Shown: positions 3,977 to 59,511 of the stretch, piece by piece | Layout: each line of letters starts with the position of its first letter | Numbering within the stretch: the first letter of the stretch is position 1 | From: a virus | Virus record (IMG/VR): IMGVR_UViG_3300029337_000071 | Coordinates: 11,801-75,800 of that record | DNA length: 64,000 bases | Reading direction: 5' to 3' (one strand) | Notes under the pieces: generated by a model | Seen by the model: the letters and a program-made list of their open reading frames with translations, nothing else | Told to the model about the DNA's origin: nothing | Database searches by the model: none | Position numbers and translations under genes: made by a program

Positions 3977-6900
3977 CTAAATATCGTCTTCGTCCTCCTC
4001 AATATCATTCTTAATTGCAAATTTACTCAACCAAAACTCGAATTTATCAGGAACTTCCTTATAAATCTTCTTTCCTGTTTGTGGATTTATTTCACCTGTT
4101 GGCTCTTTTTTATTTTTCTTTTCAAGGGAAATTATGTAAAGGACAGAACCCAAATCGAAGGGGTTACGATTATACTGACTTGTCCACATTTTTACATCTC
4201 TTGTTTTCCCACTATAAATTTCAAACAAGTGAACATTTACTATGGATTTTTTGATATCCAATTCAGATACATAATACAAACGTTTGCTTACTTTTGAATC
4301 TGAATCACTTACAATTCCAAGAACTTCTCGTTGGTTGTCTAATCTTTCTTTTAATGTCAATTCTCTATATGGAATTTTTGAAATTAGCTCATTAATAATT
4401 TTGTTAGAATCAAGTTTATTAAACTGCTTTGCAGTCTCATTCCCATATTTTTCAAGAACATCAAATGGCAAGTTATTCTTTTCAGCTTTATCTTTTGCAA
4501 TTTGCTTTGCTCCATTGAGAAGATCATAATATCGTGTAATTTCAAGTAGAGTATTTACATCTCCATATTTCTTAAAATAATTAATCCTAATGAGCTTATT
4601 AACAATGGTTTTATTGATTGAATTAGAAAACAATGCAGTCAAAACGCCTGTAAAAGTTTCATATTCCTTTTGTCCTAATTCATATAAAGTATCAACTACA
4701 CCTTCACCAAAACCTTTGACACTGGATAGATTAGGATATATTAGTTTATTCTCTTCGCTGATTGTAACCCTTCGATTATCTGCACCAAATTCATAATCAC
4801 CTAATTTATATCCCCAAAATTTAATAGCCTCTTTTACAAGAGCATCAATTTTATCCTTTTTATTTTTCTCTTGATAATGGTTAATAGCCACTTCGTAAAA
4901 TGTTTTTGTGTGATGTGCTTTAAACCAAGCTTGATAAGCAGAGTCCCCTCCCATTGAATAAGCATGTGGAGAATTGAAGGCGTATCTCGCAGAATCCTCA
5001 ATTACATTCCATACATTCTTGAAATTATCTGTATTGCCAAATTCATCATTCCATGAGTGATTTAACTCAGAAAGTAAATGTTCTTTCTTCTCGCCCTTTA
5101 ATTTCTTTTTGGAAATAGATTTAATGACACCATATGTTTCACCCATTTGTAATTGCAGGAATGAAAGAACTTTCATAATAGATTCCTGATAAATCATAAA
5201 GTGGGCAGTGTCGGATAACAAGTCATCAATCTTCTTTTCACCTGTTGTATAAGGTTCACGATTTAAGAATGTACTAAGCAATGAGGCAAAACCAGGTCTA
5301 ATTGCTGCAATAAAACTACTTAATTCAGCCAAATTCTGTGGCTTATATTTTTTCACACGATTAGTTGTGGCTTCTTTTTCGCATTGATTGACACAACAAG
5401 TTATACCGTTCGCATAAATATCCCATGTCTTTTTATCATTGTCTATCATATGTCTTAATTCATCAAATGTAGGAACTTCCATACCGATACTATGAAAGAA
5501 TTTATATGTAAGATAAACACTATCTACAATAAGGAAATCTTCTTTAACATATCCAAATTCATCAAGATAACCACCCTCGATAGCTGCACATACTGTTCTT
5601 TTACCAGTTGATTCAGACACAGCACTTATCAGCCCTACTTCTCTTCGTATATCACCATCAAAAATAAAATGTCCACAAGCATGTACTTTTAAGTTAATAG
5701 TAATACCTTGATATTCATTACTTTGTTTGAATAAAGAGATATATTCTTCTGGTATGTAATCTTCAACATGAATATCCTCTTTTTCATCATCATCGGCATA
5801 TTTCAAAGCTTTGTTATATTCATCAAGATATTTTGAAATCTGATTGGCATCTTCAGGTTTAACATCGTTTGCACCTGCGTATAACTGCCATGCTGCTTTT
5901 TCTTTCAATTTTTCTATTGCCATCAAAGGATAACAACCATGTTCACCAAGTAATTTCCTTGCTGCTTTAACAAATGGTTCTTGTGTGGCAACATTCAAAT
6001 CTATATCTGGCATCTGACCTGCTAATACACGTTCCTTAGTTAAAAATCTTTCAGGATAAATTGGAATATCAGCATTGAATCTATCAACGGTTGTTAATCC
6101 TAAAAGCTTATTTGTAATGAATGAAGCCGCACTACCTCTTGATGTAGTTGTTAAAATACCACCTTCATTTTGGATTGCATCATCTACAATAGCTTTACTT
6201 GTCAAGAAATAATCAACAACCCCAGCTTCCATAACTTGTTTTGCTTCATATCTAATTCCATTTGCTTTTTCTTTAGACTTTTCCTTTTCTTTGGCATATG
6301 CTTTATTCAAAGTATCTTTGTAGATTTTACATTTTTCTTTATATGTTTTATTCTTATAAACACTAGGAATCTTAAATTTTCTATCAAGAACAATTTCTTC
6401 ACACTCAGATATAAAAACATTCGTATTCATAATTGCCTTATATATTTCTTCCCTATTCAAGATTCCTTGTTCTTCAAATCTTTTTATAACAGTCTTAGTA
6501 TCTGGATAATCAAGATACCATCCTTCCTCGTCAGGATAATTAATATTCTTATATTTAAGAATCTGATCACGCTTGATTGAATTCTCATCTTTTACATAAT
6601 GACTATCAAGACCACAAATAATCTGGATATTATGCTCTTTTGCAATCCTTAGTATCTTTTTATTCAATTCCTTTTGTTTGTCTGTATTATGATACTGTAC
6701 TTCTAAAAAGAAATTGTTACCAAAATATCTATGCACCTTTAACCATATATCCTCTGCATCCTCATAATTCCATCCAGCAACACAAGCAGATGTTACAATT
6801 ACATTATCTTTGGGAATATTAAATAGTAATTCCAAATCAATACGTGGCTTATAATAATATCCGTCTATATTAGCCATTGATAGAGCAAAATTAATATCTC

Positions 6901-7300
6901 CACGACCTTCAGCATTTTTAGCTGCAATAATCATATGACAATTTGCTCTATCTTTCTCTTTCCTATCTTTTACCCAATAAACTTCAGAAGAATGAATATA
7001 TTTCAGATATTCACTCTCTGCGACCTTATATACTTGAAACTGATTGCCTTGTGAACCATGTTCTCCAGAATATAAACATTTTGCACCAAATTCATGAATT
7101 CTTTCTGCATAGGCATTAATAGATTCAGCACAATCTGGTGTAGATGTATTACTAAAATCTTTATGACAATGATAATTTTCAAGATATAGATTCTTTTCAT
7201 ATTCTTCTGGTGAATATGGGAACTTAAATGTAAGAGTAGGAATTATTTTTTTTATTAATTCAATGTCCGAAATATCAAGCCACCTCCTTAATCTCATCAC
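3977..7300 (-). CDS. DNA polymerase III alpha-like (family C, DnaE-type) replicative polymerase with N-terminal PHP-like segment
   Basis: 1107 aa. PHP-like NYHCHKDFSNTS..D; catalytic PDIDLNVA (DnaE PDIDxDF); AAIRPGFASLL (DnaE RPGP). Exact start uncertain because there is no clear SD. Confidence 0.65.
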   Translation of the reverse strand: MMRLRRWLDISDIELIKKIIPTLTFKFPYSPEEYEKNLYLENYHCHKDFSNTSTPDCAESINAYAERIHEFGAKCLYSGEHGSQGNQFQVYKVAESEYLKYIHSSEVYWVKDRKEKDRANCHMIIAAKNAEGRGDINFALSMANIDGYYYKPRIDLELLFNIPKDNVIVTSACVAGWNYEDAEDIWLKVHRYFGNNFFLEVQYHNTDKQKELNKKILRIAKEHNIQIICGLDSHYVKDENSIKRDQILKYKNINYPDEEGWYLDYPDTKTVIKRFEEQGILNREEIYKAIMNTNVFISECEEIVLDRKFKIPSVYKNKTYKEKCKIYKDTLNKAYAKEKEKSKEKANGIRYEAKQVMEAGVVDYFLTSKAIVDDAIQNEGGILTTTSRGSAASFITNKLLGLTTVDRFNADIPIYPERFLTKERVLAGQMPDIDLNVATQEPFVKAARKLLGEHGCYPLMAIEKLKEKAAWQLYAGANDVKPEDANQISKYLDEYNKALKYADDDEKEDIHVEDYIPEEYISLFKQSNEYQGITINLKVHACGHFIFDGDIRREVGLISAVSESTGKRTVCAAIEGGYLDEFGYVKEDFLIVDSVYLTYKFFHSIGMEVPTFDELRHMIDNDKKTWDIYANGITCCVNQCEKEATTNRVKKYKPQNLAELSSFIAAIRPGFASLLSTFLNREPYTTGEKKIDDLLSDTAHFMIYQESIMKVLSFLQLQMGETYGVIKSISKKKLKGEKKEHLLSELNHSWNDEFGNTDNFKNVWNVIEDSARYAFNSPHAYSMGGDSAYQAWFKAHHTKTFYEVAINHYQEKNKKDKIDALVKEAIKFWGYKLGDYEFGADNRRVTISEENKLIYPNLSSVKGFGEGVVDTLYELGQKEYETFTGVLTALFSNSINKTIVNKLIRINYFKKYGDVNTLLEITRYYDLLNGAKQIAKDKAEKNNLPFDVLEKYGNETAKQFNKLDSNKIINELISKIPYRELTLKERLDNQREVLGIVSDSDSKVSKRLYYVSELDIKKSIVNVHLFEIYSGKTRDVKMWTSQYNRNPFDLGSVLYIISLEKKNKKEPTGEINPQTGKKIYKEVPDKFEFWLSKFAIKNDIEEDEDDI

Positions 7301-50014: not shown

Positions 50015-50087
50015 CTAGGCTGGTGGGACTTGAATCCACGAATGTCAGAATCAAAATCTGATGTGTTGACCACTTCACCACATCCCA
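50015..50087 (-). tRNA. tRNA-Gln(UUG)-like, 73 nt, with non-canonical pairs; no encoded CCA
   Basis: Hand-folded. Acceptor UGGGAUG/CAGCCUA pairs 6 of 7. D-arm GUGA-AGUGGUCA-ACAC. Anticodon arm UCAGA-UUUUGAU-UCUGA is perfect, with U33 and A37. Variable loop is 5 nt. T-arm GUGGA-UUCAAGU-CCCAC. Confidence 0.4.
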
Positions 50088-50133: not shown

Positions 50134-51003
50134 TTACTTATCTGTTACAACTGTATTGTTAGTTCCAGAAATAGTAACCCAACCAAATTTATTTCTTGCT
50201 TCGGCTTCCTTCATTCTTATAAGCTCATCTGTAATAGAAGAACTTAACTTATTATTCGCCTCTGCCTGTGCTTTGGCTTCGATTAACTGTGCATCAGCCT
50301 TTGCTTGTGCTTCTGCCTTAGTTACTTCTGCATCAGCCTTTGCCTTATTAATAGCTGTCTGATTATTAATTTCCTGAGTTTCGGCTGCCTGCTGTGCTGT
50401 AATCTTTGCATTAATAGCTTCCTGTGTCTTTGTATCAACGGAAATATTAATCAATGATACATTACTAATCGCTATACCATATGGTTCAAACTTCTTATTA
50501 AGATAATCAGTTAATGCTGTATTTACATTTGCTCTTTCAGAACCAAGAATATCTGACACCTTATAGTTAGCAACAATTTCTTTAGTCCAAGAAATAATGT
50601 TAGGTTTAATAAAACTGTCTCTTACTTCCTTTCCAGATTGTCCTCTAAATCTTGTAAATAGATCAGCTACCTTATCAGGACTATACTGATATGTAAATGT
50701 AAGATCTATCTGCATAGCCTTACCCTCAGATGAACTCGCTGAAAAGCTGTCATCATCTTTAGAGTCTCCGTCCTTACCAGATGTTAAATAACTCTGTTCA
50801 AGACTCACCGAGTAAAGTGTCGTTTTTACAGTTGGTGACTTTAAATGCCATCCTTGTGTAAGAATATCGCCTTTTACTCCACCCGACATACTGTACTGTA
50901 CGGCAATATAGCCAGCAGGTACACGCACACTTGACATAAATAATAATATTGCTACAACAACAATTACTACTACTGTTACTACTCCTCCGATTGTTTTCTT
51001 CAT
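50134..51003 (-). CDS. SPFH/band-7 (prohibitin/HflC-like) domain membrane protein
   Basis: N-terminal TM helix, then an SPFH-like core and a C-terminal Ala/Lys/Glu-rich coiled coil. Confidence 0.55.
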   Translation of the reverse strand: MKKTIGGVVTVVVIVVVAILLFMSSVRVPAGYIAVQYSMSGGVKGDILTQGWHLKSPTVKTTLYSVSLEQSYLTSGKDGDSKDDDSFSASSSEGKAMQIDLTFTYQYSPDKVADLFTRFRGQSGKEVRDSFIKPNIISWTKEIVANYKVSDILGSERANVNTALTDYLNKKFEPYGIAISNVSLINISVDTKTQEAINAKITAQQAAETQEINNQTAINKAKADAEVTKAEAQAKADAQLIEAKAQAEANNKLSSSITDELIRMKEAEARNKFGWVTISGTNNTVVTDK

Positions 51004-51161
51004 TCTTTTGTCTCCTTTTCTTCGTTATTATTTATTTCATCTGTCGAAAATACTTTATTTATAACATTGATAACAAACTTACCAATTTTTTCAAATAAAG
51101 GTGACAGTAGAAACCATAAAATTATTAATCCTATTAAAACTAATATAAAAAATACTGACAT
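51000..51161 (-). CDS. small membrane protein (53 aa), translationally coupled (ATGA overlap) to the SPFH gene
   Basis: Unlisted ORF MSVFFILVLIGLIILWFLL... with GGAGAATAGTTAA upstream. Its stop overlaps the SPFH start. Confidence 0.4.
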   Translation of the reverse strand: MSVFFILVLIGLIILWFLLSPLFEKIGKFVINVINKVFSTDEINNNEEKETKE

Positions 51162-51276
51162 TTAACTATTCTCCTTTTCGTATTATATTTTTCTTCCATT
51201 AGCTTGATAATCTCAACATTTCTGTAGTATCTATATTGAATAATCATTTTACTGAGTAAAATGTTGTCTTAACCGT

Positions 51277-51312
51277 GTTTTGTATCTATGTTAAATTAAA
51301 CATATCTAAAAC
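51277..51312 (-). CRISPR. orphan degenerate CRISPR-like repeat (unit C) downstream of the nuclease gene
   Basis: GTTTTGTATCTATGTTAAATTAAACATATCTAAAAC is about 26 of 36 identical to the array repeat. Confidence 0.5.
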
Positions 51313-51420
51313 CTCAAATCACACAGATACTATTAACATAGATTCTAACGAGTGCCATTAATTAACAACCTCGCCATTCAGGTGCAAAATCACCTGCAAT
51401 CTTACGATTGATTAAGTAGC
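51313..51420 (-). ncRNA. conserved structured RNA element E1 (candidate tracrRNA/omega-RNA-like scaffold), directly after the nuclease stop codon
   Basis: Starts CTCAAA; contains hairpin CAGGTG-CAAAAT-CACCTG (51379..51396). Homologous to E2 and E3. Confidence 0.45.
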
Positions 51421-51422
51421 AC

Positions 51423-52811
51423 TTAAGCTACTTTATTATTCTCTGAACCATTCTTACTTTGTTCATATTTTTCAGAGATATCATAATATTCTCTTGCTTC
51501 CTGTTTACTCTTTTCAGTAACTTGTCCACTTCCCATCCAAAGAGTTGACATTGCAATGTTTCTGGCAGCATTGAAGTCTGCATTAAAACCAGTTTTTTCA
51601 TATTTTTTATGACTATCACAATTCTCATTTGCACATTCAAATACTGACTGTGACTTTCTCTGACCAAACTCCCAATTACCACATACACTACAAATCTGTG
51701 ATGTATAACAAGGATTGATTTTTCTTACTTCTATTCCGTATTTAGCTGCTTTATATGTAATATAATCTTGAAGTTTATAATAACTCCAATTTCTCAGGAT
51801 AAAATCACTTGTATCATATCCTGTTAAATTCTCAATATTTATGTATTTAGCATTATGTTTTAAAGCAAAATCAACGACTCTTTTACTTATCATATGACAA
51901 TATGTTTCAACAAAATGTACTTCTGCTTTCTGCAATCTTTCTAATGCTTTCAGTTTCTTTGCTCTACCATGACCACCAGAAGTATTTCGTAATGACTTCT
52001 GTAATCTTTTTCTCTGAGCTTGCATTTTAGTTCTTATTCTTAGAAAATCATCTGCATTTCCAATTGCCAATCTCTCGTAAAGATTATTGTTTAAAGCACA
52101 CATAGCAGGAACTGCAATGCCTAAATCAACACCTACTACTATATTTTCATCCAGCTCTCTAAGTTGTTTTGGAATAGATATTGAGAGATTTAAAATGATT
52201 GACTTACCATCAATTTCAATGCTACTTCCTTGCACTTTATAATTCTCTTCTAATATATTCTGAATAACAGATCTTAACTCTAATGACCTATGCGGATTGC
52301 CAAACACAACCTTAAATACAATTTTATTAACCCACTTGACATATACCGCCAAATCAGAATCATTAATCTTGTCTAAAAAATCATGATATGTTTCATACTC
52401 ATGATAAAAAGTTAAGTTTCTGCCTCTTGTAATAAGTGGATTAGTTCTCTTATAATTTGTTACAGTTCGTTCACCTTTAGCCAATCCATTCTTTAAAGCT
52501 GTGCTGAAATCCTGCTTGACTTTCTGAGTAACGGCTGATGGAGTGTCTACACCAGTTGCAAAATCAATATCTTTTAATATGATATTAGAGTTTGTCATTA
52601 TTTCTTTCTGTCTTGCCTTAAATTCTTCATTCTTAATATCACGATTATATTTGTAATATTCACTCATAAGCTGTCCCATAAGCAGGTTACAAGCCTGATA
52701 TTGAGCATACTGACCATTTCTAATAAAATCATATACTCTATTGATTTCATCCTTATCTCCTACTGGAAATAATTTAATTTTTCTACAAATTGTCATTCTA
52801 TTGTTTCCCAT
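51423..52811 (-). CDS. cas12f: Cas12f (Cas14)/TnpB-family RNA-guided nuclease, 462 aa
   Basis: RuvC-I VGVDLGIAVPAMCALNN; Arg/Lys-rich bridge QRKRLQKSLRNTSGGHGRAKKLKALERLQK; RuvC-II INIENLTG; zinc finger CYTSQICSVCG...ECANENC; RuvC-III NADFNAARNIA; N-terminal KIKLFPVGD. Collinear with Cas14a/Un1Cas12f1 from memory. Confidence 0.7.
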   Translation of the reverse strand: MGNNRMTICRKIKLFPVGDKDEINRVYDFIRNGQYAQYQACNLLMGQLMSEYYKYNRDIKNEEFKARQKEIMTNSNIILKDIDFATGVDTPSAVTQKVKQDFSTALKNGLAKGERTVTNYKRTNPLITRGRNLTFYHEYETYHDFLDKINDSDLAVYVKWVNKIVFKVVFGNPHRSLELRSVIQNILEENYKVQGSSIEIDGKSIILNLSISIPKQLRELDENIVVGVDLGIAVPAMCALNNNLYERLAIGNADDFLRIRTKMQAQRKRLQKSLRNTSGGHGRAKKLKALERLQKAEVHFVETYCHMISKRVVDFALKHNAKYINIENLTGYDTSDFILRNWSYYKLQDYITYKAAKYGIEVRKINPCYTSQICSVCGNWEFGQRKSQSVFECANENCDSHKKYEKTGFNADFNAARNIAMSTLWMGSGQVTEKSKQEAREYYDISEKYEQSKNGSENNKVA

Positions 52812-52892
52812 AATTTGTAAATCTCCTTTTATATTTTTTGTAATTTTAAATATCTCTAAAATTAAACAGTTTACAAGTACAACAACGCAAGT

Positions 52893-53059
52893 GTTTTATA
52901 CCTATGTAATTTTATATGTATCTAAAACTGTCATTAACTTTTATTTTCATATTTTTAGTTTTATACCTATGTAATTTTATATGTATCTAAAACGTATAGT
53001 TTGCCACTATATCTGCAAATGGTGTTTTATACCTATGTAATTTTATATGTATCTAAAAC
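52893..53059 (-). CRISPR. mini CRISPR array 1: three identical 36-nt repeats (GTTTTATACCTATGTAATTTTATATGTATCTAAAAC) and two spacers of 29 and 30 nt
   Basis: Repeats at 52893-52928, 52958-52993 and 53024-53059. Spacers are tgtcattaacttttattttcatattttta and gtatagtttgccactatatctgcaaatggt. Strand is uncertain; minus is inferred from the co-oriented gene and leader-like E elements. Confidence 0.7.
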
Positions 53060-53158
53060 CTCAAACTTATTACATAGATTTTCATGAGTTGCATTGCACT
53101 CACGATTCGGCAGTAAAATCTACCGCAATAGAATTGATTTTAATTTCATTTATATATT
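53060..53158 (-). ncRNA. conserved structured RNA element E2 (candidate scaffold/tracr-like or leader) between the two arrays
   Basis: Starts CTCAAA; hairpins GAGTTGCATTGCACTC and CGGCAG-TAAAAT-CTACCG (53108..53125); contains an inverted copy (ATTACATAG) of the repeat core. Confidence 0.45.
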
Positions 53159-53322
53159 CTTTTAATGAGATGTAATTTTATATACTTCTAAAATTTTATA
53201 ACTTGTGTCGATATATATCATGTAATTTTGCTAGTATGTAACTATACTTCCAAAACAACTGAAACATCTCCTCTCTGTTGCCAGGTATTTTGTTAGTATG
53301 TAATTTCATATACTTCCAAAAC
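53159..53322 (-). CRISPR. mini CRISPR array 2: three degenerate repeats (36, 32 and 36 nt) and two 30-nt spacers
   Basis: Repeats at 53159-53194, 53225-53256 and 53287-53322 (ATTTTGTTAGTATGTAATTTCATATACTTCCAAAAC type). Spacers are tttataacttgtgtcgatatatatcatgta and aactgaaacatctcctctctgttgccaggt. Confidence 0.55.
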
Positions 53323-53405
53323 TTCAAATTACATATAAATTACATACTTTTCAGTGAGTGATATAATCCTCACTATTCGGACTCAAAATAGCCCGTAGTC
53401 AAAAG
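53323..53405 (-). ncRNA. conserved structured RNA element E3
   Basis: Starts TTCAAA; hairpins GTGAGTGATATAATCCTCACT and CGGACT-CAAAAT-AGCCCG (53378..53395); contains an anti-repeat-like ACATATAAATTACATA. Confidence 0.45.
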
Positions 53406-53487
53406 ACTAATTGTTATAGGATAAACTGGCTTGAATTAGCCAAATAGATTTGTTATAATAGAACATATATAGTTTATCCTATATTTT

Positions 53488-53530
53488 ATTCTCTGAGCAG
53501 ATTGTTTAGGTCGGCAAACTTTTGCAATCT
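53488..53530. terminator. long imperfect hairpin (GAGCAGATTG...CAATCTGTTC) flanked by T-rich sequence on the plus strand
   Basis: 10-bp stem with one mismatch, located between the CRISPR region and the next gene. Confidence 0.3.
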
Positions 53531-53538
53531 GTTCTCTT

Positions 53539-53682
53539 CTATTTAATATCTTCCCAATCGGTTTCATCCTTATCATTAGAAAAATTCATGAATAAGTGAA
53601 TATATAATTCAATAATTCGCTCCTTTGATAAGGCTTGTAACTGTTTTCTAAGTTCATTTCGCTTATTTGTATCTTTATCCAT
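53539..53682 (-). CDS. small hypothetical protein (47 aa)
   Basis: Unlisted ORF. AGGAGAATAATAAA lies upstream of the ATG. Confidence 0.3.
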   Translation of the reverse strand: MDKDTNKRNELRKQLQALSKERIIELYIHLFMNFSNDKDETDWEDIK

Positions 53683-53701
53683 TTTATTATTCTCCTGTAT
53701 T

Positions 53702-53902
53702 TTAGCATCTTACTAACAAGCTACTTATATCATCAGCAAGTACTTCTCTGTCAGTAACAATCCATTGACACCTAAAATCTCTATCTGCACATAACGAAGT
53801 AAAATCAGCATAACTTTGTATCTTATCTGGCTTTGCTATTGCTCTATAACACTGTTTTCTTCTTTCACATGTTTTGCTTGTACACATTGTAATATCTGGC
53901 AT
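53702..53902 (-). CDS. Cys-rich hypothetical protein (66 aa)
   Basis: ORF. Confidence 0.4.
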   Translation of the reverse strand: MPDITMCTSKTCERRKQCYRAIAKPDKIQSYADFTSLCADRDFRCQWIVTDREVLADDISSLLVRC

Positions 53903-53904
53903 AG

Positions 53905-54099
53905 TTATTTTTCTCCCTTATACTCTTTTAAAATATCCTGTAAATTGCTATAATGTATATACATAAATTGACCATACCCATTATCTTTTTTGAATCCGTC
54001 TAATTGCATATATAAACAAATATCAGACAAGGTTTCCATTATTTCAATTTGCATTTTCTTTTTTAATACAATACTTTTTAACAATGTTTTAATTAACAC
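53905..54099 (-). CDS. hypothetical protein (64 aa)
   Basis: ORF. Confidence 0.35.
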   Translation of the reverse strand: MLIKTLLKSIVLKKKMQIEIMETLSDICLYMQLDGFKKDNGYGQFMYIHYSNLQDILKEYKGEK

Positions 54100-55633
54100 T
54101 AGCTGTTCTTCCTTTCTCCATATTATTTAAGAAATTTATGTAATTATCAAAATCTCTCTTCATATATCTATAATTTACTTCCTGCGAAGAACTATATGTC
54201 TTATCAATTGAATTCTTCTGATACTGTTCAATCCAAGTTGCAAGTTCTTCATCCTTATCAGTTTTATAAGCATAAGCTGTTAATGCCATTAACGCTGCTT
54301 CACACTGTTTATATAACGATGAATTTATATCAATATATACATCAACAAAATCTTGATATTCACTTATATCTTCATTCTCTATATCTTCTGCCACACTATT
54401 TTGAACAAACTGTAATACATCAGAACTACCCGTATTCTGTTCTGATATATTACTATCTGTTTCATCGTCTTCATTAGAAGACATAGTATTATTCTCTGTT
54501 TCAGAGATAATTTGTACTGTGTTTTCTGTTGTATTTTCAACAACTTCTTCGATTTCTGAATGAGTTTCTTCCTTATTTATATGTAAATATTCTTCCATAA
54601 GCTTAGTAACCATATCTAACTTAGCCATTACAACTTTTTTATCCTTTGTGCTTCGGTTGCTATCATATGTATCAAATGATTCATTATCATATTCTTTAAA
54701 TGTCATGCTATGTAATATTCCCTGAAATTCATTTAAGAAATCAGCAAATTTAATATCTTCTATGTTATATGAAGTAAACTTATGAAAAGCTGCCAACCAA
54801 ATAAAGCTATTCTTGCTATTAAATAACTGTCCGTTAGTATCTTGATCTATTACTTTTTGTAATCTATTAAGTTCCTCTTCTAATATATTGAATTCCTCTT
54901 CTGCGGCATTTTCATTAAGATACTTAGCCATAGCTGCGTTTTTCTTCCAAGAATCAGAATGGAACATTAACATTAATGACTCTTCAACTACTCTATTTAA
55001 TACTTCTTTCTTTCTTTCAGGTGCTGTATATTCACCACAGTCCAAGAAGAATCTATTCTTTGTAACCCTTTTAAGTGAATCTACCACTTTATACATCATC
55101 AAAACATTTTTCTGATTTGTATTCATACTTGTCTGCTTATTATATCTATCAATATGATAAGCTATCTCTTCATTAGTACAATCAAGATGCTTAACTATAT
55201 CTACCTGGAAATTATCAAATTCTTCTCTTAACTCATCTGGAAGGTCTTTGTATTTCTTACCTCTTAAATCATACTCAACAACATTACCACTTCCATCTTC
55301 AGCTTGATAAGCTATCATAGGCATTCTCAATGATTTTCCCATTGCAAAGACATTATTTTTAAACTCTTCCAATACAGTTAATCTCTGTAATCCATCAATA
55401 AGCCAGTTTGTGAAACTATTTTCGTAAATCTGTTCACATAATTTAATTGAATCAATATCTTCATGTTTAATTACACTGGCAGCAAGTCCAGATTTTGCTT
55501 CGTCCGACCACTGATCAGGTTTTCTCTGTAATGGATGATTCTTATTGATTACATTTGTTCTAAACTGCTTAATCACCGTTCCTAACATTAATTGTGTCTT
55601 TACTACCTTATCTCTTCCTAACATTACTGCCAT
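54089..55633 (-). CDS. DUF262 (ParB/Srx-like nuclease domain) protein with acidic C-terminal region
   Basis: IDGLQRLT (DGQQR motif of DUF262) near the N-terminus; 514 aa; AAGGGAGAATATTACA RBS upstream. Confidence 0.5.
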   Translation of the reverse strand: MAVMLGRDKVVKTQLMLGTVIKQFRTNVINKNHPLQRKPDQWSDEAKSGLAASVIKHEDIDSIKLCEQIYENSFTNWLIDGLQRLTVLEEFKNNVFAMGKSLRMPMIAYQAEDGSGNVVEYDLRGKKYKDLPDELREEFDNFQVDIVKHLDCTNEEIAYHIDRYNKQTSMNTNQKNVLMMYKVVDSLKRVTKNRFFLDCGEYTAPERKKEVLNRVVEESLMLMFHSDSWKKNAAMAKYLNENAAEEEFNILEEELNRLQKVIDQDTNGQLFNSKNSFIWLAAFHKFTSYNIEDIKFADFLNEFQGILHSMTFKEYDNESFDTYDSNRSTKDKKVVMAKLDMVTKLMEEYLHINKEETHSEIEEVVENTTENTVQIISETENNTMSSNEDDETDSNISEQNTGSSDVLQFVQNSVAEDIENEDISEYQDFVDVYIDINSSLYKQCEAALMALTAYAYKTDKDEELATWIEQYQKNSIDKTYSSSQEVNYRYMKRDFDNYINFLNNMEKGRTASVN

Positions 55634-58494: not shown

Positions 58495-59511
58495 TCACAT
58501 ATTATTTAGTACATCTTTCATTCCCACTGCTCCATTTGCATAATTTTTGACAGTTGTTTTTACACTACTATGCCCAAGCTGCTGTTGTACGAATGCAAGA
58601 TTTCCATTTTGATTCATTACAGTAGCATAATAATGTCTCATCATATGTGCAGTAATACCATTTCCGTAATTTTCAAATATCTGCTTAATATTTTTCTCTG
58701 TTGTACGTGTTCCGTTTTTATTAATAAAAACTGCTTCTGTATCAATAATATTATCCAATGTCAACCTATACTCTAACCACTCTTTCAATGCTTTTAAGGC
58801 TGATCCGCTAAGATATACGGTTCTATTTTGCATTTCTCTGTACACACCTTTGCCAAGAATAGTAATGTATGGCATTTCTTCCTTCAAATGTAAATCAGAT
58901 AAATCTAAGCCAGCAAGCTCTGACTCTCTTATACCAGTGCCCCTTAATACCCTAAAGATAGCAATATTCCTATTTTTTACTGCAATATCCTTTTTCCACA
59001 TTATCTTCTCTTCCATGTCATTAAGCTGCTTTTCTGTTGGAAGTTTTTTTATTAAGTTGTTTCCAGATGGGATTCCCTTATATTTAATCATTTTGTAAAA
59101 ATCTTCTATATTACTATAAACTTCTCTTAACAAACACTCTCTGTATGAATAAATATCCTGTATAAAACTTTTAATGATATTTTTCCTTGTTTCTGTTGTG
59201 GTTGGTGACATTCCATTTGTTTCCTTATATCTAAGATATGAACTAATATTTTGTGGTCTTAGGTCATTAAAATCAGAAACTTCTATTTCAGAAATTGATT
59301 TCTTATTAATAATATTACTTTCAATCAACCACTGTAAAAAATCTTTAATTGCCACTAAATAATTTAGCGCTCCGTTTTTGCTTTCCAACTCATTTAAGTA
59401 ATCTCTTAAAAATTGTGGTGCATTTAACTCATCTAATTTTTTATTAAGCTTCTCCGCATTTTTATTCTGCACTTCTATTTTATAACACATTATCATCAAC
59501 CTACCTTTCAT
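58495..59511 (-). CDS. tyrosine recombinase/integrase
   Basis: C-terminal catalytic region TAHMMRHYYATVM...LGHSSVKTTVKNYANGAV (R..H..R/H..Y). Confidence 0.6.
   Translation of the reverse strand: MKGRLMIMCYKIEVQNKNAEKLNKKLDELNAPQFLRDYLNELESKNGALNYLVAIKDFLQWLIESNIINKKSISEIEVSDFNDLRPQNISSYLRYKETNGMSPTTTETRKNIIKSFIQDIYSYRECLLREVYSNIEDFYKMIKYKGIPSGNNLIKKLPTEKQLNDMEEKIMWKKDIAVKNRNIAIFRVLRGTGIRESELAGLDLSDLHLKEEMPYITILGKGVYREMQNRTVYLSGSALKALKEWLEYRLTLDNIIDTEAVFINKNGTRTTEKNIKQIFENYGNGITAHMMRHYYATVMNQNGNLAFVQQQLGHSSVKTTVKNYANGAVGMKDVLNNM

Follow-up and report, generated by a model that had tools for sequence, protein, structure and literature searches.

A phage-encoded Cas12f1 followed by what is very probably its tracrRNA gene and a CRISPR array with one repeat and no spacer

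In a 64,000-nucleotide (nt) stretch of viral DNA (positions 11,801-75,800 of the IMG/VR record IMGVR_UViG_3300029337_000071; hereafter the window, with positions counted from its first nucleotide), the gene for a miniature nuclease is followed, directly 3' of its stop codon and on the same minus strand, by a scaffold-like element (E1), a single 36-nt repeat (R1), a unique segment and a hairpin. We conclude that this region is very probably a trans-activating CRISPR RNA (tracrRNA) gene together with a clustered regularly interspaced short palindromic repeat (CRISPR) array that holds one repeat, no spacer and a trailer, and that it belongs to a phage-encoded Cas12f1. A preliminary description of the sequence had placed all these elements correctly, had recognized, on the strand of the gene, a guide-RNA scaffold with a repeat behind it, and had noted that the scaffold-repeat units upstream of the gene bear spacers; in all of this it holds. 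It had further likened the layout to that of a TnpB omega-RNA, with the unique segment as the guide, and proposed that the locus captures a transition from TnpB to Cas12. The order of elements is indeed common to Cas12f loci and TnpB omega-RNAs, but the supposed guide is a conserved array trailer, and the proposed transition is at odds with what is, by all its matches, a regular Cas12f1, accompanied by covarying tracrRNAs, adaptive arrays and a 5'-CCN protospacer-adjacent motif (PAM). A living TnpB-to-Cas12 intermediate would be notable; the evidence set out below does not support it.

Classification of the nuclease

The PADLOC profile for Cas12u3 (V-U3) matches residues 6-430 of the nuclease over profile positions 1-390 of 398 with 368.8 bits, and the PADLOC Cas12f model scores 367.5 bits at full length. 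Among solved structures, the best match is PDB 8hr5, a 497-amino-acid (aa) chain deposited as 'Transposase', which we take to be CnCas12f1 and to which nearly the whole protein aligns (E 1.3e-87). Nearly the whole protein likewise aligns to PDB 9nzp (E 2e-81), identified as RhCas12f1 (PMC13186708). Al3Cas12f comes next, then more Cas12f-like chains including Un1Cas12f1 (Cas14a.1), and the ISDra2 TnpB structure is matched at an E value of only about 2e-3. The Pfam domain Cas12f1-like_TNB is found with 57.4 bits (cutoff 26.3), and OrfB_IS605 is also detected. The broad NCBIfam subfamily model NF040570 (guided_TnpB) is passed as well (161.8 bits against a cutoff of 100); because Cas12f itself descends from TnpB, this match is informative at the superfamily level only. 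The nuclease falls below the cutoffs of the NCBIfam models for IS605-type TnpB (NF038281; 45.6 bits against 425), IS607-type TnpB (NF038280; 25.3 against 350), Cas12f2 (NF049972; 107.6 against 450) and Cas12k.

The residues expected of an active enzyme are in place. Across 18 homologues, E327 and D412 of the RuvC triad D229/E327/D412 are invariant and D229 is at least 90% conserved, and the zinc-finger cysteines C374, C377 and C393 are invariant. Cas12p (the 'Cas12 hacker') was considered as a family and rejected: its structure 9jfs matches in the RuvC region only (E 2.4e-3), and Cas12p proteins measure 500-700 aa. Judged by these profile and structure matches, the protein is thus a Cas12f1 of the V-U3 branch, and neither a transposon TnpB nor a phage 'Cas12 hacker'.

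A covarying tracrRNA-like module ahead of each first repeat

Modules of the same build as E1 precede the upstream arrays of the window (E2 ahead of R2, E3 ahead of R3) and the arrays of related loci. The sequence ahead of every first repeat in all loci yielded 27 distinct modules, which were aligned together with that repeat (alignment A2), and the test covered three helices: stem A, stem B (in which a bulged A is conserved) and a helix between an anti-repeat and the 3' half of the repeat. Within these helices 93.8% of 707 cells are paired, as opposed to 28-41% after the partners have been shifted by 1-3 columns; changes on both sides occur in 17 of the 27 pairs (133 cells), and none of 500 shuffles matched the observed values. 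The third helix alone contributes 12 pairs, 7 of them with double changes, and 90.4% of its cells are paired, such that the anti-repeat of each scaffold fits its own repeat variant. Within the window, for example, T-A and A-T pairs of E1 are replaced by A-T and T-A in E2, and E3 has G-C where E1 and E2 have C-G.

The same helices indicate the strand. They contain 74 G-U cells and 8 A-C cells, an excess which indicates that the RNA belongs to the gene strand, since about 9% of the pairs would be lost on the opposite one; as far as sequence can tell, this speaks against the possibility, considered in the preliminary description, of transcription on the plus strand only. Searched with a covariance model derived from A2, the window yields just three modules, each of them on the minus strand (51404-51277, with 110 bits and E 1e-18; 53133-53024; 53403-53287), and 18 other loci yield 38 modules, every one on the strand of the gene. 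In most loci a module starts less than about 70 nt from the stop codon, including genome loci of Roseburia, Butyrivibrio, Lachnoclostridium and Clostridium, with Lachnospiraceae named among them. A search of genome contigs with the single nuclease protein had returned no relatives; an alignment-based search then found them. Judged from covariation and the G-U bias, the E modules encode tracrRNAs, on the same strand as the nuclease gene.

Further observations concern the downstream unit itself. The 186-nt stretch that holds it folds at -46.3 kcal/mol, as opposed to -33.7 ± 3.4 for shuffled sequences (z -3.7); this fold and the covariance-model match put the unit well outside what chance would give. 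The 38-nt segment 51275-51312, which contains R1, shares 79% identity with the repeat of the upstream array. The hairpin across the stop codon is kept throughout the relatives and could possibly serve as a first stem of the tracrRNA; no covariation was seen in it. An Rfam search of positions 50500-54500 at permissive thresholds returned nothing relevant.

In described Cas12f1 loci the tracrRNA lies between the gene and the array, and its anti-repeat pairs with about 22 nt at the 3' end of the repeat. Because the literature puts the tracrRNA there, the succession of gene, E1 and R1 is the ordinary Cas12f1 layout, and its likeness to that of an omega-RNA is inherited by the whole Cas12f1 subtype rather than peculiar to this locus. 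The published RhCas12f1 tracrRNA starts with ACGGTTG-ATTTAG-CAACCG-AAGT-CTGAGGGCA...TGCCACTCGG, and the E modules share this motif of stem A, loop, linker and stem B. In an alignment of sequence alone, the similarity is significant for E2 (2 of 500 shuffles were as good) and for a module of the distant relative L022 (L022_4771; 0 of 500).

A conserved trailer behind a repeat without a spacer

What follows R1 can be judged from relatives. In IMG/VR we found 25 related loci (numbered with the prefix L, as are the other contigs below) on phage contigs of 7-186 kb, mostly 80-186 kb. Two of these phages (L002 and L003), whose nucleases are 100% identical to that of the window, carry at the downstream site E1, a repeat, a 30-nt spacer, a second repeat and then the window's trailer. 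Five others (L014-L017 and L019) have two R1 repeats around spacers that differ from those of L002 and L003, and a single R1 without a spacer is present in the window, L001, L012 and L018. Because sister phages have repeat, spacer, repeat and trailer at this site, the single R1 of the window is best understood as a collapsed or empty mini-array.

It is at this point that the reading of the unique segment as a guide can be weighed. According to it, a TnpB ancestor left behind, beside the arrays, a unit like an omega-RNA whose guide is fixed (51276-51247). The order of open reading frame (ORF) end, scaffold, repeat and unique segment is certainly real, the hairpin over the stop codon recalls the overlap of an omega-RNA with the tnpB 3' end, and the guided_TnpB model is passed. 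However, the sequence after the last repeat (ACGGTTAAGACAACATTTTACTCAGTAAAATG...) is unchanged behind one or two repeats, spacers being inserted ahead of it, which is how a trailer behaves and not how a guide does; the preliminary description had itself named conservation without variability as evidence against its proposal. The trailer has no second copy in the window, even when 3 mismatches or a seed of at least 10 nt are allowed, and in IMG/VR it occurs only as the trailer itself, in seven sister contigs. Moreover, tRNA genes abut the last repeat in its place in L014, L015 and L018, and in L005-L010 it is lost along with part of the cassette. IS200/605 features are likewise missing from what was searched, since the curated IS605 and IS607 models fail and none of the ten flanking ORFs is a tnpA, and the far better match to Cas12f1 than to ISDra2 TnpB also speaks against this reading, as does a gene-tracrRNA-array order that is already ordinary for Cas12f1. 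We therefore consider a retained fixed guide very improbable.

Among the tRNA genes that replace the trailer are a tRNA-Gln in L018 (4548-4620) and a tRNA-Gln with a tRNA-Lys in L014 (4614-4764), no more than about a dozen bases past the last downstream repeat. The window has a tRNA-Gln of its own at 50015-50087 on the minus strand, 1.2 kb downstream of the cassette.

Alternatively, the lone repeat might act outside interference altogether, either as an RNA decoy that counters the CRISPR system of a host (an RNA anti-CRISPR in the form of a solitary repeat unit), or as a CRISPR RNA (crRNA)-like regulator of phage genes. Single repeat units of viruses are known from a review, and the repeat ends (GTTTTAGA...AAAAC) and the adjoining junction do resemble those of type II-A. 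Yet R1 and the anti-repeat of the tracrRNA next to it covary, and sister phages have behind R1 a normal spacer whose target carries a PAM of the Cas12f type. As for regulation, the trailer was considered as the guide of such an RNA and rejected: no seed match of at least 10 nt, hence no partial match that could act as a regulatory target, exists elsewhere in the window. A decoy or regulator is in our view hardly credible.

More weight belongs to the possibility that the downstream cassette is a decaying remnant, which has lost its spacers by repeat-repeat recombination, is heading to deletion and has no present role. In L005-L010 the cassette is cut off after stem B, with only stems A and B kept, and in L013 an internal deletion joins stem B to the repeat; given these truncations, and four loci without a spacer at the site, the empty copy of the window may be decaying rather than poised. 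On the other hand, all helices of E1 are intact in the window and R1 equals the consensus repeat of the spacer-bearing relatives, while the two phages with an identical nuclease hold a spacer there whose target, perfect and CCA-flanked, exists in gut contigs. In addition, a leader and one repeat form the minimal substrate for spacer integration. We thus regard decay as unlikely, and favor an empty array.

Spacers, PAM and targets

The arrays of the lineage appear to be in use. All 11 protospacers have a 5'-CCN flank (CCA in 8, CCT in 2 and CCG in 1) and no 3' motif, in agreement with the 5'-CCD PAM measured for RhCas12f1. Ten of the 11 lie in plasmid-like gut contigs with a Rep_3 replicon, in which genes for Rep_3 initiators adjoin the protospacer cluster. 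Spacer 1 of the window, from R2, matches plasmid-like contigs at 30 of 30 positions next to a 5'-CCA flank, and a metagenome scan with its core returned 20 human-gut contigs (L042-L061). These contigs hold perfect or near-perfect matches to several spacers of different phages and of all three cassette types, among them the downstream-cassette spacer of L002 and L003. The remaining kind of target is represented by L038, a 28.6-kb viral contig of IMG/VR in which protospacers of L010 and L006 lie within a tyrosine-recombinase gene (1493-1526).

Exact-match scans of IMG/VR with window spacers 1 and 3 gave no matches, none of 55 spacers of the lineage matched a GenBank phage, and no self-targets were found in the window. 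The lineage appears to aim Cas12f at plasmid-like elements, and its targets, Rep_3 plasmid-like elements together with another, integrase-bearing element, point to a conflict between mobile elements in the gut.

One of the target contigs, L048, has five protospacers within 300 bp (788-1090) and also encodes GH66, GH31 and GH97. The target of window spacer 1 overlaps there, at about 965-1030 and on the opposite strand, a small ORF ending in ...IMAGIVCHYICKWLDGDE*, which by eye resembles an Fst-like type I toxin.

Spacer acquisition and the leader junction

Phages with 95-100% identity in their nucleases carry at least 52 distinct spacers between them. In arrays that have spacers in common, the shared ones are distal to E and the unique ones always proximal to it (R3 of L014, L016 and L018; R2 of L016 against L014, and of L007 against L006). 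This argues that insertion is polarised at the scaffold side, so that the E region doubles as a leader. Independent acquisitions from one site are also apparent: window spacer 1 and a spacer of L011 and L013 overlap with an offset of 4 nt, and spacers of L010 and of L006-L009 derive from opposite strands of a single site.

The junction ahead of every first repeat reads (A)TTTGAG|GTTT (51313-51319, 53060-53066 and 53323-53329 in the window; columns 97-108 of A2), the 36-nt repeats start with GTTTTAGA (GTTT(T)AGA) and end in AAAAC, and the spacers are 30 nt long. ATTTGAG/GTTT is the conserved leader end of type II-A (group 1) arrays and is needed for II-A adaptation (PMC5382924). Prompted by the repeat ends and this junction, assignment of the arrays themselves to type II-A was considered, and rejected as the logic of the effector: their PAM is leader-proximal, as in types I and V, and a 3' motif is absent. 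Regarding the machinery, V-U3 loci are known from the literature to be without adaptation genes, and acquisition in trans has a precedent in type IV-A3 systems, according to a review. With a II-A-like junction in a type V system that lacks an integrase of its own, acquisition in trans between CRISPR types becomes open to direct test; the junction also offers a lead on which integrase loads these arrays.

Several observations weigh against the picture drawn so far, in addition to the possible decay of the downstream copy. First, by sequence alone neither E1 nor E3 shows significant similarity to the RhCas12f1 tracrRNA (120 and 56 of 500 shuffles, respectively, were as good); their homology to it rests on the common architecture. 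Second, acquisition is unexplained by the locus itself, in that no cas1, cas2, cas4 or cas9 was found among the ten flanking and the ten largest other ORFs; in a PADLOC scan of 105 window ORFs, the best 25 matches listed were to methyltransferase models, which is uninformative for cas1 and cas2. Third, a scan with promoter consensus sequences found matches at chance level. Finally, the 8-bp hairpin behind the trailer is not beyond chance, as the window contains 7 perfect 8-bp stems and shuffled sequences contain 8.2 ± 2.6. With an energy of -5.1 kcal/mol, this hairpin could possibly be the terminator of the cassette transcript; L019 has a hairpin of different sequence in the same place.

Features of the locus and its surroundings

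The coordinates of the nuclease gene and of its three cassettes are collected in Table 1. Since the degenerate terminal repeat of R2 overlaps the ribosome-binding site of cas12f, the upstream array is probably co-transcribed with the gene. The two old spacers of R3 are common to relatives. In the distant phage relatives L022 (2289-5121), L023 (2289-5150) and L024 (2513-4984), four to seven cassettes of tracrRNA and mini-array accompany one cas12f; the number per locus reaches six in L022 and seven in L023, each cassette with its own repeat variant and matching anti-repeat. A limited literature search found no description of several co-varying tracrRNA/repeat pairs that serve one Cas12f.

Table 1. 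The cas12f1 gene of the window and the elements of its downstream and upstream cassettes
Feature	Position	Strand	Remarks
cas12f1 gene	51423..52811	-	462 aa; V-U3 branch of type V-F, from PADLOC and PDB matches
Nuclease stop codon	51425-51423	-	
Stop-codon-spanning hairpin	51433-51414	-	GTAGCnTAAnGCTAC; kept in the relatives L001-L025
E1 tracrRNA-like scaffold	51410-51313	-	Covariation and covariance model
E1 stem 0	51410-51397	-	
E1 stem A	51396-51379	-	
E1 stem B	51375-51347	-	With bulged A
E1 anti-repeat	51344-51333	-	11-12-nt stretch complementary to the following repeat
E1 junction motif	51319-51313	-	ATTTGAG
R1, single CRISPR repeat	51312-51277	-	GTTTTAGATATGTTTAATTTAACATAGATACAAAAC; 36 nt; 3' half pairs with the E1 anti-repeat
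Array trailer (the 'guide' of the preliminary description)	51276-51247	-	ACGGTTAAGACAACATTTTACTCAGTAAAA; 30 nt, conserved
Weak 8-bp hairpin	51263-51245	-	
E2 tracrRNA-like scaffold	53060..53133	-	Stem A 53108-53125, stem B 53083-53104, anti-repeat 53069-53080
R2 array	52826..53059	-	Repeats 53024-53059, 52958-52993 and 52893-52928 (perfect)
R2 spacers	52994-53023, 52929-52957, 52863-52892	-	29-30 nt
R2 degenerate terminal repeat	52826-52861	-	Overlaps the cas12f ribosome-binding site
E3 tracrRNA-like scaffold	53323..53443	-	Upstream hairpin 53426-53443, stem 0 53396-53409, stem A 53378-53395
E3 stem B and anti-repeat	53353-53374 and 53337-53349	-	
R3 array	53159..53322	-	Intact repeat 53287-53322; degenerate repeats 53225-53256 and 53159-53194
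R3 old spacers	53257-53286, 53195-53224	-	Common to relatives

The window as a whole (1-64000) is a region of phage replication and nucleotide metabolism, with genes for DNA polymerase III alpha (3977-7300), a DHH/RecJ-like protein, AAA_24, NAPRTase and an RNA ligase; it also encodes several DNA methyltransferases, HNH endonucleases and a tyrosine integrase (58495-59511). Of its 105 ORFs, 97 lie on the minus strand, as does the nuclease gene. The downstream cassette is succeeded by an SPFH/Band_7 gene (50134-51003, minus strand), ahead of which come small ORFs (51003-51160), among them a short hydrophobic ORF that by eye starts at 51160.

A model for the cassettes

How might such a locus work? 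Each cassette, composed of an E module and its repeats, would be transcribed on the gene strand and presumably processed. The E RNA would form stems 0, A and B. Its anti-repeat would pair with the matching repeat variant, at the 3' half of the repeat, and could do so in cis, where the first repeat adjoins it, or in trans, with repeats further along the array. Cas12f1 would bind the resulting anti-repeat:repeat duplex and cut DNA that matches the 30-nt spacer beside a 5'-CCN PAM. New spacers would enter at the E-proximal repeat with the help of an integrase presumably acting in trans, none having been found in the neighbourhood. The downstream cassette of the window would then be an empty slot, either ready for a spacer or idling, in which the lone repeat gives way to the array trailer with its weak terminator-like hairpin.

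A more far-reaching version of this model is conceivable, and we offer it tentatively, as something that may well turn out otherwise. Each cassette could be a self-contained chimeric guide unit, in which the first repeat continues a type V tracrRNA in cis, so that the newest spacer would be made as a natural single-guide RNA with the layout of an omega-RNA. The 3' end of the tracrRNA would double as a type II-A-style leader end for a host integrase acting in trans, and several diverged tracrRNA/repeat pairs would serve one Cas12f. If this were true, the empty downstream cassette of the window would be an unloaded single-guide slot.

Independently of this version, the locus provides a well-supported natural mini Cas12f1 borne by a phage, whose PAM is CCN, whose tracrRNA is short at about 90-100 nt and whose arrays are directed against gut plasmid-like elements, which makes the system useful both as a candidate for a compact editor and as a case of conflict between phage and plasmid. 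Possibly weightier are the service of one effector by several co-varying tracrRNA/repeat pairs and the occurrence, in a type V system, of a leader-repeat junction like that of type II-A.

Comparison with known systems

The closest known systems are those of type V-F1 Cas12f1, in the V-U3 branch (RhCas12f1 and CnCas12f1, and the Os, As and Sp Cas12f1). Common to them and to the locus described here are a miniature TnpB-like RuvC nuclease, a tracrRNA encoded between the gene and the array, immediately after the gene, with an anti-repeat that pairs to the repeat's 3' half, a homologous stem A/stem B motif in that tracrRNA, a C-rich 5' PAM (CCN here, CCD for RhCas12f1) and a locus that contains no adaptation genes. 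The present system differs in being carried by phages of about 80-190 kb and in having two to seven cassettes of tracrRNA and mini-array per effector, each with a co-varying repeat variant. Its repeat is a 36-nt GTTTTAGA...AAAAC preceded by the ATTTGAG junction, whereas RhCas12f1 has a 30-nt GTTAAAAG...GTAAAT; its tracrRNA is shorter, with no extra stem between stem B and the anti-repeat, and its arrays hold 0-3 spacers.

With TnpB and the omega-RNAs of IS200/IS605 elements (the OMEGA systems), the locus shares a related protein fold and a scaffold that lies on the gene strand and begins where the gene ends, with the guide position 3' of it. In contrast to these elements, the nuclease gene exists in one copy in the 64 kb (tblastn), no tnpA or other transposase was found in the ten flanking ORFs, and neither a TAM nor transposon ends were recognised, left and right ends (LE/RE) not having been searched for with a dedicated model; acquired, repeat-flanked 30-nt spacers occupy the guide position, the scaffold is functionally split into anti-repeat and repeat, and the trailer is conserved.

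The transposon-CRISPR intermediates named TranC, as cited in bioRxiv 10.64898/2026.03.27.714800, are apparently similar, being compact TnpB-like nucleases associated with CRISPR; their arrays are short, adaptation genes are missing, and some are borne by phages. Going by that description, the present system seems to stand apart: its nuclease scores as Cas12f/V-U3 over its full length and lies near characterised Cas12f1, and we saw no evidence of an RNA derived from a transposon right end.

Viral CRISPR mini-arrays and solitary repeat units resemble the arrays studied here in being very short (0-3 spacers), in residing in phages and in opposing other mobile elements. They differ in that the phage here brings its own effector, and a tracrRNA for each mini-array, with no reliance on an effector of the host.

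Finally, the junction motif ATTTGAG/GTTT is identical to that of type II-A arrays (PMC5382924), with which the locus also shares 36-nt repeats that begin with GTTTTAGA and end in AAAAC, 30-nt spacers and insertion proximal to the junction. Its effector and tracrRNA, however, are of type V, its 5'-CCN PAM is leader-proximal, the opposite of II-A, and neither cas9 nor csn2, cas1 or cas2 was found nearby.

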